Shown in pieces: positions 24,308-30,263 of a stretch of DNA of 64,000 bases; the stretch's first letter is position 1, and every line of letters begins with the position of its first letter. The stretch covers positions 13,339-77,338 of the forward strand of contig CAWBOU010000052.1 in NCBI GenBank assembly GCA_963790365.1. The letters run 5' to 3'. Origin of the DNA: an uncultured delta proteobacterium (GTDB lineage Bacteria; Desulfobacterota; Binatia; JACPRU01). The notes under the pieces are model-generated. The model was not told where the DNA came from and ran no database searches. It saw only the letters and a list, made by a program, of their open reading frames with translations. The position numbers and the translations under genes were made by a program.

Positions 24308-26773
24308 ATGTCGGGCATCGTTCGATGGTTAGTCGCGACGACGATCACCGCCCTGATCGTGGTCGTCCTCTTCGGGGCCTGGCTCGGCTGGCGGCTCCGC
24401 CAGGGGCCCCTGCCGGTGCCGATGCTCGACCCCGTCGTGGCGAGCGCCCTGGCCGGGCCTGACCCCGACATACGCGCGGAGTTCTCGGGCACGGTCCTGG
24501 CCTGGCCGGAGGGCCGGCTGCCGCAGGTACACGTCCTCGGCCTCCGCTTGTCGCGTGCCGACGGGACCATCCTCGCAGACCTTCCGGAGCTCTCCATCCG
24601 GCCGAGCTTGCGCGCACTCCTGGGGGGCCGGCTCGCCGTCGGCACCGTCGGCGTGACCGGCGTGAAGCTGGCGATCACGCGCGATCCGCAGGGTCGGCTC
24701 TCGTTGGCGGGCATGACCCCCGGTGAGGGAGGCGAAACGGCGTCGCCTCTCTCCTGGCTGACGGACACGGGGGATCCCGACGCGCCGAATGCGTTTCTCC
24801 ACCGCGTGACGATCCGCAACGCCGAGATCGCGCTCGACGATCGCGTCTCGACAAGCAAGTGGCGCGCCACGAAGGCGAATCTCGAGATCCGCCGCCGCCG
24901 CAATCGGTTCGAGGCGGATCTCAGCGCCGAGCTCGCCGTGCGCTTCGAAGCGGCGACCCTTCGGCTGCCGCTCCAGGCGCGCGCGACGGCGACGTTCGGG
25001 GAGTCGTCGACGATCGAGACCGTCGATTTCGATGCGACCGCGACCAAGGGCGGGTTCGATCGCGGGGTCGACGGACGGCCGGCCCTCGCGATCCGTTCGT
25101 TCGCGGTGGCCGGCGGCTTTCGCGCCGACGGCGAGACGCTCGAGCTGCGGTCGCTCGAGCTCGGCGCGGGCGGCGCCACCGTGAAGGCGAGCGGTACGAT
25201 CGCCGGCACCTCGCGCGAGGCGAAGTTCCAGGGCGGGGTCGCGGCGTTTCCGGTCGGCGAGCTCGATCTCGCGTGGCCGCCCGGCGTGGCGGACGCGGCC
25301 CGGAGATGGGTGCTCGGGAATCTCCGCGACGGGACGATCACGAAGGCCGAGTTCACGCTGCACCATCCCGGCGCCGACCGCGGACACACGATTTTCCGCC
25401 TGAATGCCGCCCTGACCGGCATGACGGTCGACTATCTCGCGCCGCTCGAGCCGGTCCGTGCGCTCGAGGCGTCGCTGAAGCTCGACGAGAAGCGACTCGA
25501 CGCGAAGGTCGCGAGCGGGGCCGTCGGTGCGCTCCGGCTGACGCGCGGCACGGTCGGCATCGATCTCGCGACGTCGCCGGCCGCGGCGGCGATCGACGCC
25601 GATCTCGAAGGTCCGACCGACGACTTGCTCGCGCTGCTCGATTCCCAGCCGCTCGGGTACCCGAGCCGCTTTGGCGTGCCGACTCGCGGCGTCGGCGGCC
25701 AGACCGCCGGACACGTCGATCTCCACTTTCCGCTCGCCGGGGACAAGACGGCCGCGGAGCTCGACGTCGAGGCGCGCGCCGACCTCTCCGGCGAGGGCGT
25801 CGAGGGCACGTTCGTGGCGAGCGTCACGGGCGGCGAGCTCCGAAAGTTCGAGATCCAGCGGTATCGCTCGGCACGCAACGAGCTCGCCGCCACGATCGAG
25901 CGCGACGGCGACGGCGGCTATCGGGTCGGCATCTCGGGCGAGAAGCTCGATCTCCAGCCGCTGATCGAGCGCTGGCGCTCGGCGGAGAAGTCGACGCCGT
26001 CGCTCGAGCGTCCGTTCGCGATCCGCTTCGACCTCGCGAAGGTGAGCGCGGCGAGCGGCATCGAGTGGTCGGGCGTCCGCGGCGAGCTCTCCGGCGACGG
26101 CAGTCGGCTGCGGCGGGCGATGGCGACCGGCACGCTCGCCGGCGGCGGCGCGACGCGCATCACGGTCGAGCCGGCCGCGAACGGGCGCCGCATGCAGGTC
26201 AACTCCGGCGACGCGGGGCGGGTATTCCAGACGCTCGGGATCATCGAAAAAGGGAGAGGCGGGAGCCTCACGCTGTCCGCGGTCACCGACGACAGCGGCC
26301 CGGAGCCGCACTCGTCAGGCACGCTCGAGGTGAGCGATCTCCGCGTGATGGAGGCTCCGCTCCTCGCGCGGATCCTGAGCCTCGGCTCGTTCGCGGGCAT
26401 CAGCGAGATGTTCCGCGGCGACGGCATGACGTTTCGTCGCGCGCGCATTCCGTTCCGCTGGACGGACAAGGAGATCCGGCTGACGAACGCGCGCGCGATC
26501 GGCGCGATCGGCTTGACCGGCGACGGCACGATCTCCCCGTCGACCGGCGAGATCGACATTCGCGGCGAGGTGATCCCCGCCTACACGCTGAACACGGCGC
26601 TCGGAAAGGTGCCGCTGATCGGCGACCTCCTGAGCGGAGAGGGTGGCGGGATCTTCGGCATCTCCTACGAAGTGAAGGGCACACGGAAGCAGCCGGACGT
26701 TTCCGTGAACCCGCTCTCGGCGCTTGCGCCCTCGAAGCTGAAGGAGATGTTCCTCAAGCCTTTCGGCTTATAG
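24308..26773 (+). CDS. AsmA-like / YhdP-like (DUF3971-type) large envelope protein
   Basis: N-terminal TM anchor MSGIVRWLVATTITALIVVVLFGAWL, then a long beta-rich body. C-terminus PLIGDLLSGEGGGIFGISYEVKGTRKQPDVSVNPLSALAP is typical of the AsmA/YhdP family. Confidence 0.65.
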   Translation: MSGIVRWLVATTITALIVVVLFGAWLGWRLRQGPLPVPMLDPVVASALAGPDPDIRAEFSGTVLAWPEGRLPQVHVLGLRLSRADGTILADLPELSIRPSLRALLGGRLAVGTVGVTGVKLAITRDPQGRLSLAGMTPGEGGETASPLSWLTDTGDPDAPNAFLHRVTIRNAEIALDDRVSTSKWRATKANLEIRRRRNRFEADLSAELAVRFEAATLRLPLQARATATFGESSTIETVDFDATATKGGFDRGVDGRPALAIRSFAVAGGFRADGETLELRSLELGAGGATVKASGTIAGTSREAKFQGGVAAFPVGELDLAWPPGVADAARRWVLGNLRDGTITKAEFTLHHPGADRGHTIFRLNAALTGMTVDYLAPLEPVRALEASLKLDEKRLDAKVASGAVGALRLTRGTVGIDLATSPAAAAIDADLEGPTDDLLALLDSQPLGYPSRFGVPTRGVGGQTAGHVDLHFPLAGDKTAAELDVEARADLSGEGVEGTFVASVTGGELRKFEIQRYRSARNELAATIERDGDGGYRVGISGEKLDLQPLIERWRSAEKSTPSLERPFAIRFDLAKVSAASGIEWSGVRGELSGDGSRLRRAMATGTLAGGGATRITVEPAANGRRMQVNSGDAGRVFQTLGIIEKGRGGSLTLSAVTDDSGPEPHSSGTLEVSDLRVMEAPLLARILSLGSFAGISEMFRGDGMTFRRARIPFRWTDKEIRLTNARAIGAIGLTGDGTISPSTGEIDIRGEVIPAYTLNTALGKVPLIGDLLSGEGGGIFGISYEVKGTRKQPDVSVNPLSALAPSKLKEMFLKPFGL

Positions 26774-26898
26774 CGGGAGGGACACTCCTCGGCGCCTCTT
26801 TCGACGCGATTACCTCGGCGGTCGAGGCGGCGAGGAATGTCCCCCACCCGCGCATAACGCTGCGCGTTCTGCGCGGTGCCTATGCTCTGCGCGGTGGC

Positions 26899-27711
26899 CT
26901 AGGCGGGGCGCAGCGCGATCGCAGCGGCGCCGTCGAGCACGCGGAACGTGAACGACTCGGTGAGGAACAGCTCGACCGTCTTCGCGTCGTGCCGCGAATA
27001 CCCGACCGACACGTCCTGGCCGACCGTCAGCTGGAAGTCTCCGCCGCGCACCGAGAGGAGGAGCGCATTTTCGACGGAGGGCGTCCACAGGATCGGTCCC
27101 TCGAGGATCTGCTGCTCGATCCAGCGCCGGATCGGGTGGCCGGTGAGGGTCGTCAGCGAGACCTTGCGATACCATTCGTCGCCGAGCGCGAGGGCATACG
27201 GCCCGCTCACGCCCGCCTCGCGCAGCACCTGCAGCGCGGCGAGCAGCGCCTCGGGGAAGCGTTCCATCGCGCCCGAGAGCGCGACCGGCGAATGCGGGCT
27301 CGATTCGATGATGCCGGTGATCGCGGCCGCGGCGTAGCCGTTGAAGATCGCGCCGTCTTCGGTGCGCGCGGCACGCTCGGCAGCCTCGACGACAGCTTCG
27401 AGATCGAGCGTCTTCGCACCGCGCGCAACGCCGTCGAGCACTTCGCGATCGAGTGAGAACGGCACGCGCACTTCGATCAGCGGCTGAACGCGCCGCATGC
27501 GGGCTTCGACGCCGTCCGCCGGCGCGCGATCGAGCGGGTCGAGCCTGCCGAGGTTCACGGCCGCGCATTTCCAGCCGTGAGGCCCGTCGAAGTCGACGAT
27601 CTTCCGGCCGATGAGCTGAAGCTTCAAGACCCGCGTCGCCTCGCGGTCGATCTCTTCCCACGCCTCGGGAACGATCGGTGCGAGCTCGCGATGGAGGAGG
27701 TCGGCGCTCAT
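26899..27711 (-). CDS. family 1 encapsulin shell protein (linocin M18-like)
   Basis: Internal ATG at 27711 reads MSADLLHRELAPIVPEAWEEIDREA...GPHGW...FTFRVL. 270 aa. ATGA overlap with the cargo gene stop. Confidence 0.85.
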   Translation of the reverse strand: MSADLLHRELAPIVPEAWEEIDREATRVLKLQLIGRKIVDFDGPHGWKCAAVNLGRLDPLDRAPADGVEARMRRVQPLIEVRVPFSLDREVLDGVARGAKTLDLEAVVEAAERAARTEDGAIFNGYAAAAITGIIESSPHSPVALSGAMERFPEALLAALQVLREAGVSGPYALALGDEWYRKVSLTTLTGHPIRRWIEQQILEGPILWTPSVENALLLSVRGGDFQLTVGQDVSVGYSRHDAKTVELFLTESFTFRVLDGAAAIALRPA

Positions 27712-28079
27712 GACGACGGCCTCAGCGAGCCGATGCCGAGCGAGCGCGCGGGCGCCGCGGCGTCGGGTCCACCCGCGACTTCGCCTTCGTCCGCTTCGAC
27801 CGCGATCGGCCCCTCGCGGAAGAGGATCGTGCGGAGCTGGCGGTCGAACTCGGGATCCGCGCGACGGATCCATTCGAGCGTCATCACTGCGTGCTCGACT
27901 TCCTCGTTCTTGTTGTGCACGAGCACCTCGCGGAGCGCGGGATCGGTGCACGCCTCGGCGCGCTGCTGATACCAGTCGATCGCCTCGAGCTCTTCCATGA
28001 GAGAGACGATCCCGCGGTGGATGTCGCGCGTGAGCGGCGACAATGCCTCGGGCGCCTCGTGGAGGTTCTCGCTCCCCAT
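27708..28079 (-). CDS. encapsulated ferritin-like cargo protein (EncFtn type) with C-terminal targeting peptide
   Basis: EELEAIDWYQQR...NKNEEVEHAVMTLEWIRRADPEF ferritin-like motifs, a flexible Ala/Gly/Pro linker, then the terminal SLGIGSLR targeting-peptide motif. Confidence 0.85.
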   Translation of the reverse strand: MGSENLHEAPEALSPLTRDIHRGIVSLMEELEAIDWYQQRAEACTDPALREVLVHNKNEEVEHAVMTLEWIRRADPEFDRQLRTILFREGPIAVEADEGEVAGGPDAAAPARSLGIGSLRPSS

Positions 28080-28098
28080 CGATTTTCTCCGTGTGCGG

Positions 28099-28308
28099 TC
28101 AGCGAGCCGGCTGACCCGTTCGGCCGGGCGCGGTGTAGGAGGGTGGGTCGCTCGCCGGGAACGAATCCATCGACGCTTCGTCGACGGCCCGGTCGGCGAT
28201 CGTCCAGCGCCGGCGCTTCGTACGGCGCACGATCGCGCCGAGCGCGATCGCGAATGCGCAGAGCGAACCGACGAGCACCGGGAGGGCGGTGGAGGACGAG
28301 CTCCGCAT
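28099..28308 (-). CDS. small single-TM protein with C-terminal SFPASDPP motif
   Basis: 69 aa: MRSSSSTALPVLVGSLCAFAIALGAIVRRTKRRRW...DEASMDSFPASDPPSY. ATG lies 6 nt after the upstream stop. Confidence 0.55.
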   Translation of the reverse strand: MRSSSSTALPVLVGSLCAFAIALGAIVRRTKRRRWTIADRAVDEASMDSFPASDPPSYTAPGRTGQPAR

Positions 28309-28313
28309 GATTC

Positions 28314-29036
28314 TCAGTGTCGTCGATTCCGGTACTCGAGGCCGCGGTCGAAGCCGCGCTGATAGGCCGCGTCGCTGCCTTCCGCGCCGTAGCCTTCGCG
28401 ACTCGAATCGCCGCGCGGCGATTCGCTGGCGCGGTTCCCGCCGCGAAGCGCCGTCTCGAAGCCGTTTCGGAACGCCGCCTCGTCGGCCGCGAAGTCGCCG
28501 CCGTCGTACTTTTCGGCTTCGGCGTCGCGCACGCCGACCCACCAGTTCTCGCGTGCGGCATCCACGGACTCGGCGCCTTCTTCCTTGAGCACCTGGCGAG
28601 CCTGCTCCTCCTCGGTGTCGTCCTCGACGAGCGCGATGAGCACGATGCGGCCTTGCGCGAGCGCATCCTCGTAGACGTACATCTCGTCGATCGGCGGTCC
28701 GTCGTACGACTCGCGGTCGGCGACCTCGCCGAGCTTCCAGCCGGCATAGCCCGCGCCGGCGCCGAGCACGGCCGCCGCGGCCGCCCCGAGCGCGGTCACG
28801 GCGCCGACGCCGGGGATGACGAGGCCGAGGCCGAGCCCGAGCGTGCCCGCGACGACTCCGCCGAGCGCGCCGCCGACCGGCGCCATGTCCTCGGTCGCGG
28901 GTACCTCTTTCGGGATGCTGTGCCCCTCGCCCGGTACGAGCAGGCTCACGTGATCGTCTCCGACGATCGGCACGAGCCGATCGGCGGCATGAGCGCCGTC
29001 TTCGACGGCGCGGAAGATTCCGGTCACCGCTAACAT
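28314..29036 (-). CDS. general-stress (YflT-like) domain protein with central glycine-zipper membrane segment
   Basis: 240 aa. VTGIFRAVEDGAHAADRL and IALVEDDTEEEQARQVLKEEGA modules flank GGALGGVVAGTLGLGLGLVIPGVGAVTALGAAAAAVLGAGAG. Confidence 0.55.
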   Translation of the reverse strand: MLAVTGIFRAVEDGAHAADRLVPIVGDDHVSLLVPGEGHSIPKEVPATEDMAPVGGALGGVVAGTLGLGLGLVIPGVGAVTALGAAAAAVLGAGAGYAGWKLGEVADRESYDGPPIDEMYVYEDALAQGRIVLIALVEDDTEEEQARQVLKEEGAESVDAARENWWVGVRDAEAEKYDGGDFAADEAAFRNGFETALRGGNRASESPRGDSSREGYGAEGSDAAYQRGFDRGLEYRNRRH

Positions 29037-29120
29037 GCCCTGTTAGAACCCCGGGCGGAGGCGAATGTTTCAGCGTCGTCACCCGGTTGTGGACCGGGTG
29101 TTCGAACACCGAGGGGGATC

Positions 29121-30263
29121 GTGTCTCCAATGCGTGTCGGCGTCACCGGATCCTACGGCGGGCTCAATCTCGGCGACGAAGCGATCCTCCAGGTCGTGCT
29201 GAACGAGCTCCGGCGCGTGATTCCCGGGGTCGAGGTGACCGTGTTCTCGCGGAACGCCGAGGACACGCAAGCCCGCCACCCTTGGACGCGTGCGGTCGAG
29301 GTTCGTGAGCTTTCGCGGAGCGAGGTCCTCCCGGAAATCGAAGCGCTCGACCTCATGGTGCTCGGCGGCGGCGGGGTCCTCTTCGACGGCGAGGGCGAGC
29401 TCTTCGTGCGGGAGCTGTTGCACGCGCAGGAGATCGGCGTGCCGACGGTCGTCTACGGTGCGGGCGCCGGTCCCCTCGAGCGCCCGGAGACACGGAAGCT
29501 CGTCTGCACGGCGCTCGAGCGCGCTCGGGCCGTCACCGTGCGCGAGCGGCATGCGCTGCAAGTGCTCGAGGGAATCGGCGTCCGCCGGCCGATCGAGGTG
29601 ACCGCCGATCCTGCCTTCTTGCTCGAGCCCGAGCCGCTTCCGCCGGACACGATGAAGCGCGAGGGCCTCGACAGCGGCCGGCGCCTGATCGGCCTCTCGG
29701 TCCGTGAGCGCGGCGCCGCGGCGCCCGACATCGAAGAGGCGCACTACCATGCGCTCCTCGCGAACGCGGCCGATTACATGGTCGATCGGCTCGATGCCGA
29801 CCTCGTCTTCGTACCGATGGAGCGGAAGGTCCTCGACGTCCAGCAGTCGCATAAGGTGATCGCTCTCATGGCGTTCGCGGACCGCGCGACCGTGCTGAAG
29901 GGCGACTATACGCCGGGGCAAGTCGCATCGCTCGTCGGGAACTTCGACTTCGCCGTCGGCATGCGGCTTCACTTCCTGATCTTCGCGACGCTGCAGAAGG
30001 TGCCGTTCGTCGCGCTTCCCTATGCCGGCAAGGTGATGGGGCTCCTCGAGGCGATGGACCTCGAGGCGCCGCCGATGCAGGTCGTGAATCCGGGCCGCTT
30101 GATCGCGCACATCGACCGCTCGTGGGACATGCGGCGCGACCTCGCGGAACGGATCGCGAAAACCCTCCCCGAGCTCAAGCAGCGCGCGCGCGAGAACACC
30201 GCGATGCTCGTCCGAGTGCTCGAAGAGGCGAAGCCGCGCGGTGACGGCGCGAGCGTGAGCTGA
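29121..30263 (+). CDS. polysaccharide pyruvyl transferase family protein
   Basis: MRVGVTGSYGGLNLGDEAIL N-terminus and overall layout fit the CsaB/WcaK-like family. Purine-rich RBS-like GAGGGGGA lies upstream. Start is GTG 29121 or ATG 29130. Confidence 0.7.
   Translation: MSPMRVGVTGSYGGLNLGDEAILQVVLNELRRVIPGVEVTVFSRNAEDTQARHPWTRAVEVRELSRSEVLPEIEALDLMVLGGGGVLFDGEGELFVRELLHAQEIGVPTVVYGAGAGPLERPETRKLVCTALERARAVTVRERHALQVLEGIGVRRPIEVTADPAFLLEPEPLPPDTMKREGLDSGRRLIGLSVRERGAAAPDIEEAHYHALLANAADYMVDRLDADLVFVPMERKVLDVQQSHKVIALMAFADRATVLKGDYTPGQVASLVGNFDFAVGMRLHFLIFATLQKVPFVALPYAGKVMGLLEAMDLEAPPMQVVNPGRLIAHIDRSWDMRRDLAERIAKTLPELKQRARENTAMLVRVLEEAKPRGDGASVS

Follow-up and report, generated by a model that had tools for sequence, protein, structure and literature searches.

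A known type of EncFtn encapsulin operon with a probable 5′ extension encoding a stress-type membrane unit in one Binatia-like sub-clade

Four tightly packed genes on the minus strand of the stretch of DNA analyzed here (64,000 nucleotides of contig CAWBOU010000052.1 from an uncultured member of the Binatia, hereafter referred to as the window) encode a family-1 encapsulin shell, its ferritin-like cargo EncFtn and, directly upstream, two putative membrane proteins that we term g1 and g2. The locus is probably a known kind of EncFtn nanocompartment whose operon is extended at the 5′ end by a co-expressed, stress-type membrane unit, comprising g1 and a short tail with the motif FPASDPP, which would be neither cargo nor required and which belongs to one Binatia-like sub-clade. 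The core pair is known, and what is new is the conserved g1/g2 extension, which is of modest interest, with the FPASDPP tag as the most intriguing by-product. The window is part of contig C52 of a metagenome-assembled genome (MAG; 66% complete, approx. 70% G+C), the closest named relatives of which are ‘Candidatus Binatia’ MAGs.

Gene order and the core encapsulin pair

All four open reading frames (ORFs) were found on the minus strand where the initial annotation had placed them: g1 (28314..29036; 240 amino acids, aa), g2 (28099..28308; 69 aa), the EncFtn cargo gene (27708..28079; 123 aa) and the shell gene (26899..27711; 270 aa). The gap between the g1 stop and g2, first given as 6 nt, measures 5 nt, g2 and EncFtn are separated by 19 nt that include a GGAGA Shine-Dalgarno sequence, and the proposed ATGA coupling of the cargo and shell genes was confirmed as a 4-nt overlap. 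The G+C content at third codon positions is 0.85–0.87 in all four genes. When compared to a 94% identical metagenome copy of the locus (L026), the ratio of nonsynonymous to synonymous polymorphism (pN/pS) was 0.12–0.16 for g1, EncFtn and the shell (0.12 for g1), and these three genes are under purifying selection.

The shell was matched by PF04454 (E 2.2e-85, 286 bits, cut-off 24.3) and by NF041155, the NCBIfam model encap_f1 (E 2.4e-88, 296 bits, cut-off 100), and residues 4–269 aligned with the Haliangium ochraceum shell 7ODW (E=9e-85); similarity to the T. maritima shell 3DKT was lower (E ~1e-52). It is the only encapsulin gene found in the window genome. The cargo was likewise matched by PF22277 (E 7.4e-39, 131.9 bits, cut-off 27) and TIGR04535 (E 3.7e-40, 136.5 bits, cut-off 125), so that the hidden Markov model (HMM) scores of both proteins were above or far above the cut-offs, and its nearest solved relative is the H. 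ochraceum EncFtn structure 7OE2 (E=3e-42). In the alignment of the two proteins, the EELEA..DWY and NEEVEH blocks as well as the GSLGIGSLR tail were all matched, and the ferroxidase blocks EELEAIDWYQQR and NKNEEVEHAVM correspond position by position. The terminal SLGIGSLR noted in the initial annotation is present, 3 residues short of the C-terminus (...SLGIGSLRPSS). The HMM and PDB-sequence matches thus fully support the assignment of the pair to an established iron-storage system, and the shell and EncFtn are predicted to form a canonical family-1 encapsulin iron-storage system of an already known kind.

A genome-wide regular-expression search for the loading-peptide pattern [LIVT]G[IVL]G[SNGD]L[KR] placed a canonical loading peptide at an ORF end only in the EncFtn of this locus, with no other convincing case in the genome. 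The same search found no family-1 loading peptide in g1 (ending ...EYRNRRH) or g2 (ending ...GRTGQPAR), and since neither has the cargo-loading peptide, both are predicted not to be cargo.

The closest solved system is that of H. ochraceum (7ODW, 7OE2, 5N5F), to which the window shell and cargo were likened by sequence. Both have the same two-gene core with the cargo gene 5′ of the shell gene, the same fold signature, the ferroxidase blocks and GSLGIGSLR, and a shell of approx. 270 aa, and the window core is of the same kind as the ‘Flp’ class of classical encapsulins (Andreas & Giessen 2021, PMC8346489). The window core differs in that it is preceded in a tight gene string by the membrane unit of g1 and g2; the part of this survey available to us mentions no such unit for Flp/EncFtn operons. 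In the relatives of the same class that have a shell gene, EncFtn is encoded directly 5′ of the shell in 11 out of 11. In the relative G002, the shell is matched in two abutting pieces in different frames (L024/L025, G002:C13:115083-115873), covering residues 3–137 and 138–269, which suggests a frameshift or an assembly error.

The upstream genes g1 and g2

The g2 protein was as originally described, a 69-aa protein with a single transmembrane (TM) segment and ending in DEASMDSFPASDPP. The TM segment spans residues 8–27 (maximum of 2.4 in Kyte-Doolittle hydropathy over 19 residues, KD19) and is followed by a basic stop-transfer stretch, RRTKRRR, and the tail VDEASMDSFPASDPPSYTAPGRTGQPAR. The FPASDPP-tail motif is encoded at 28129-28170 (-). 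The tail occurs in two genomic arrangements. In the split form, g1 is followed by g2, and the small single-TM protein ends VDEASMDSFPASDPP..GRTGxPxR; this arrangement was found in the window, in L026 (94% g1 identity), in L203 from a Ca. Binatia MAG (75%) and in L033 (65%), and the g2 orthologues of the latter three have the same layout with their own TM segment, Arg/Lys run and tail. In the fused form, represented by P0004-P0007 (287–304 aa) and L202, the tail of g2 is instead found at the C-terminus of g1. The consensus VDEASxxSFPASDPP...GRTGxPxR is common to g2 and fused g1. A further contig (P0126), with a shell 83% identical to that of the window, has according to its gene calls a 242-aa gene, a 231-nt gap without a called gene, EncFtn and the shell, a layout that fits the split form.

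A spurious ORF was considered for g2 and ruled out, as L026, L203 and L033 all retain the TM segment, basic stretch and tail, and other loci encode the tail as part of g1. Judged from this pattern, g1 and g2 are real genes and two halves of one unit, the latter a point that the initial annotation missed, and the coexistence of fused and split forms is a ‘Rosetta stone’ argument that g1 and g2 act together. The basic stretch following the TM segment predicts, by the positive-inside rule, a cytoplasmic g2 tail, and the tail would therefore be tethered at the cytoplasmic membrane face in both architectures.

Neither g1 nor g2 was assigned to a Pfam or NCBIfam family, with nothing usable from Pfam even at E<=10. 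The g1 protein can be divided into an N-terminal module with remote likeness to YflT, a predicted Gly-zipper hairpin, a conserved C-terminal domain and a helical end. The glycine zipper proposed initially is present as a Gly-rich hydrophobic stretch at residues 54–96 (KD19 up to 2.0), compatible with a two-helix hairpin. The YflT-like label stood in part. PF11181 (YflT) was matched by 3 of 13 members of the g1 family tested, including P0091 and P0104 (approx. 40% identical to g1), the scores of which (26.3 and 27.0 bits, for residues 4–69) just exceed the cut-off of 26.2, but g1 itself had no match to this model even at E<=10. As only a few homologues of approx. 40% identity barely reach the model, the likeness is remote and restricted to the N-terminus.

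The g1 family is large, with 282 matches in the protein collection and more than 554 loci in GTDB species, the majority of them Acidobacteriota. Its invariant blocks are DELYVYEDAL, VDAARExWW and FRRGYERG, and the C-terminal domain of g1 itself reads DEMYVYEDAL...VDAARENWW. An AlphaFold2 (AF2) model of g1 (predicted local distance difference test 68.6, predicted TM-score 0.65) had a beta-alpha-beta module at the N-terminus, followed by the Gly-rich segment, an alpha-beta-alpha module and long helices, the soluble parts being modelled with confidence and the Gly-rich part being poorly resolved and of low confidence. Comparison of this model to the PDB by Foldseek gave nothing at E<=0.001, and a search of PDB sequences with a profile of an 86-sequence g1 alignment returned only noise from de novo TIM barrels. 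As in YflT/general stress protein 17M (PF11181) and Gly-zipper membrane proteins, g1 starts with a beta-alpha-beta module and continues with a Gly-rich hydrophobic segment, and one database source labels a g1 homologue ‘SlyB’ owing to its Gly zipper; unlike YflT, g1 has 130 well-conserved C-terminal residues without a described family or a PDB relative in sequence or fold. One homologue (P0002, 323 aa, 79% identical to g1) reads past the g1 stop into an Arg-rich extension in the wrong frame over the g2 region, which is probably a gene-calling or sequencing artefact of a 1.2-kb contig.

Conservation of the gene block

The tail-bearing g1 unit was found 13–50 nt upstream of EncFtn, on the same strand, on nine contigs from independent samples (L026, L203, the P0126 contig, L027, which is identical to L118, L202, L028, L029, L199 and L034), of which L028, L029 and L199 are near-identical to one another. 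The shell gene follows EncFtn wherever the linked contig continues. The contig of L033 ends inside the g2-like gene and was left out of this count; each tail-bearing locus for which enough downstream sequence exists shows the linkage. The linkage persists down to approx. 54% g1 identity and approx. 65% shell identity, corresponding to a tree path of approx. 1.3–1.5 substitutions per site. The outer flanks differ: the split forms are accompanied by a divergent pyruvyl-transferase gene, and the fused forms by a gene for a short-chain dehydrogenase/reductase (SDR), with or without a gene for the flavin-binding protein dodecin. Among the sister loci, L027, L028 and L199 have this SDR gene upstream, and the order in the fused sister loci with dodecin is SDR-dodecin-g1tail-EncFtn-shell. 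The window genome encodes an SDR orthologue (68% identical) on another contig, C51, and its dodecin-like genes are also found elsewhere.

In a maximum-likelihood (ML) tree, all tail-bearing g1 proteins formed one clade (support 100/99) that included split and fused sub-clades, with the tail-less and encapsulin-unlinked P0008, P0010 and L038 as sisters. On this tree, the gain of the tail and of the EncFtn linkage fall on one and the same branch.

Transcription signals

By scan, neither a sigma-70-like promoter nor an intrinsic (T-run) terminator was detected in 26500-29400, and Rfam gave no match on 26600-29300. This includes the interval between 28099 and 28079, where a promoter or terminator would have argued against the extended operon proposed in the initial annotation; its 19 nt leave no room for a terminator. 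As both the 5-nt and the 19-nt spacers are too short, no terminator is expected inside the g1-g2-EncFtn stretch. Strong hairpins were found in the unit only after the shell gene, where two of them follow the stop codon (26780..26898, minus strand) in the convergent gap before a YhdP-like gene. The predicted RNA fold has an energy of -68 kcal/mol over 126 nt (z = -5.1; 0 of 200 shuffles as stable), and the terminator scan missed these hairpins because they have no T-run. The transcription unit probably ends at these hairpins. At the same post-shell position, L028 has an unrelated long perfect hairpin.

Upstream, g1 and the pyruvyl-transferase gene share a divergent intergenic region of 84 nt (29037..29120), in which the four-gene unit presumably has its promoter. 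It includes TGAAAC-N17-GTTCTAA at 29044-29072 (-), ending 7 nt before the g1 ATG, which is identical in L026 and has its spacing kept in L033 as TGACAC-N17-GTTGAAA. We take this element to resemble promoters of the extracytoplasmic function (ECF) type, and if it were a promoter the g1 mRNA would be near-leaderless. Genome-wide, the motif had 10 matches, which is near chance level, and as no regulon is thereby shown the promoter idea is speculation. The same region has a perfect palindrome, GTGTTCGAACAC, at 29098-29109, which is not conserved, as the 94% identical L026 reads GCGGTCGAACAC. Taken together, we infer that g1, g2, EncFtn and the shell are co-transcribed.

These signals bear on a sparser explanation, according to which g1 and g2 are mere neighbours of the core pair, separately transcribed and of unrelated function, and the synteny stems from the recent common ancestry of a few uncultured lineages. 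All linked loci do fall into one clade, and the nearest EncFtn-shell loci outside it are without g1 at the locus: L200 (63% shell identity) has an unrelated SDR gene upstream, and in G004 (61% shell identity) the g1 homologue is found on a different contig. On the other hand, the short same-strand spacers recur at every linked locus without a hairpin or promoter-like site between the genes, the strong hairpins come only after the shell gene, and the block endures to the identities given above while the flanking genes are replaced. We thus regard the neighbour explanation as unlikely.

The FPASDPP motif beyond the locus

The tail motif was searched for in the JGI metagenome collection with the pattern VD[ED]AS[MR][DQE]SF, which matched 540 stretches, and the best 80 of these 540 loci (L118-L197) were examined. 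In these 80 loci, the motif mostly lay 17–54 residues from the C-terminus, and the proteins carrying it were highly diverse, including an Fe/Mn superoxide dismutase (SOD; L138), a ClpB-type ATPase (L136), BON (L125) and ChrB_C (L137) proteins, a YgaP-like TM protein (L176), a DsbA-like thioredoxin (L169) and a Luciferase-domain protein (L152). Many hosts were proteins of 50–100 aa, either small and soluble or with a single TM segment; g2 is similarly short, with VDEASMDSFPASDPP as the conserved part, but in the window the motif is tied to g1, by fusion in the relatives or by adjacency, and to an encapsulin operon. Of these 80 loci, L118, on the contig of L027, was the only one with an encapsulin near the motif. 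No recurrent neighbour gene of the motif proteins was found in the 80 loci, and the clusters were mostly of motif hosts themselves.

The window genome contains one copy of the motif, and none was found in 40 class relatives (0/40). A role as genome-wide sorting signal was consequently rejected for the window genome. A text search of the literature library for ‘FPASDP’ returned no paper. From its distribution, FPASDPP appears to be an undescribed tag that is widely found at the C-terminal end of stress proteins. In several class relatives, an Fe/Mn SOD gene is located directly upstream of, or divergent from, EncFtn-shell (L017 474-1088, L019 385-1047 and L016 396-1055), which fits the oxidative-stress context of the compartment.

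Discussion

The following mechanism is proposed for the locus. EncFtn decamers would oxidise Fe(II), the C-terminal SLGIGSLR peptide would load EncFtn into the HK97-fold shell, and the shell would hold the ferric mineral. In uncultured bacteria of one Binatia-like sub-clade, the membrane unit of g1 and tail would have joined the EncFtn-shell pair at its 5′ end, probably on one shared transcript that begins in the divergent region (29037-29120) and ends at the post-shell hairpins. The Gly-zipper hairpin of g1 would hold two soluble modules at the membrane, and the tail would be displayed on the cytoplasmic face, either from the C-terminus of g1 or on the single-pass anchor of g2. Most likely, g1/g2 would be a membrane component of the stress response, produced alongside the nanocompartment when cells face oxidative, iron or general stress, and would not contact the shell directly; it is less likely that the compartment includes g1/g2 as an obligatory part. 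The stress character is suggested by the motif on SOD, ClpB, BON, DsbA, ChrB_C and YgaP-like proteins, by g1 homologues near YflT and by the SOD genes beside EncFtn in relatives.

Several observations weigh against this interpretation. The initial annotation left open whether the upstream genes belong to a variant operon or are only neighbours, and named a lack of conservation at encapsulin loci of related genomes as a refutation. Such conservation holds in one monophyletic sub-clade but not in the class relatives or at most loci of the g1 family: g1 and g2 are absent at 11 of 11 same-class EncFtn-shell relatives, so that with L200 there are twelve EncFtn-shell loci outside the clade without g1, and no EncFtn or shell gene was found in the vicinity of 88 further loci of the g1 family, made up of four P0010 contigs, four class relatives and the best 80 of the more than 554 GTDB loci (within +/-4 kb for those 80). 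Given the 88 unlinked g1 loci and the twelve EncFtn-shell loci without g1, the association appears to have a single evolutionary origin and the unit does not seem to be needed for the compartment to work; with a single origin, the conserved synteny could reflect inheritance rather than function. For g2, the comparison to L026 rested on 10 differences only (pN/pS 0.56), too few for proof of selection. A promoter may be located inside g1 or g2. The membrane hairpin of g1 is deduced from hydropathy, the Gly-rich segment being of low confidence in the AF2 model, and the ‘stress’ label of g1 comes from borderline YflT matches of its homologues and not of g1.

The opposite possibility is that g1/g2 is a true third component of the system, docking the shell at the inner membrane or serving in iron delivery or release, in which dodecin and the SDR might take part. 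The shared branch for tail gain and EncFtn adjacency is in line with this, as is the survival of the three- or four-gene block through a change of both outer flanks. That the tail is predicted to be membrane-tethered in split and fused forms alike suggests a constraint on its position, and the dodecin gene abuts g1 by 4–6 nt in L028 (1385-1591), L034 (661-867) and L199 (2109-2315). Accessory membrane proteins (DUF1345) have moreover been reported for encapsulin operons with DyP cargo (PMC8346489, in the part available to us). However, the motif is not encapsulin-specific and tags unrelated stress proteins, the EncFtn systems of relatives do without both g1 and g2, both proteins lack any sequence that resembles a loading peptide or is known to bind the shell, and the association has arisen only once. 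A third component is therefore, in our view, improbable. A more specific form of this idea, in which g1 and the membrane-tethered tail form a module for docking or control that connects the EncFtn compartment with the inner membrane, setting its position or gating iron uptake and release, and in which VDEASxxSFPASDPP is more broadly a portable tag recruiting SOD, ClpB, BON and DsbA to a common partner, is more doubtful still and is offered as speculation.

We thus retain the co-expressed, non-cargo membrane unit as the preferred explanation, for which the DyP encapsulin operons provide a parallel. In the portion of the encapsulin-operon survey available to us, the lineage-specific accessory genes of DyP operons include those for DUF1345 membrane proteins, SDRs and cupins, and no accessory genes are listed for Flp/EncFtn operons (Andreas & Giessen 2021, PMC8346489). 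As far as this part of the survey goes, the DyP operons similarly have non-cargo, lineage-restricted accessory genes conserved inside a family-1 operon, and their SDRs have a counterpart in the SDR genes upstream in the sister loci of the window; they differ in that the window cargo is EncFtn and that g1/g2 is not DUF1345 and has no Pfam family. Literature searches combining encapsulin with dodecin, and encapsulin with YflT or glycine zipper, returned nothing relevant.

A further outcome of the analysis is FPASDPP, a short and highly conserved motif that is widely found at the C-terminal end of stress proteins. For the EncFtn compartments themselves, a membrane partner conserved within a clade would be a concrete candidate for how they receive or release iron and where they are positioned in the cell; if the partner is only co-regulated, the locus would be one more stress operon containing a known iron store.

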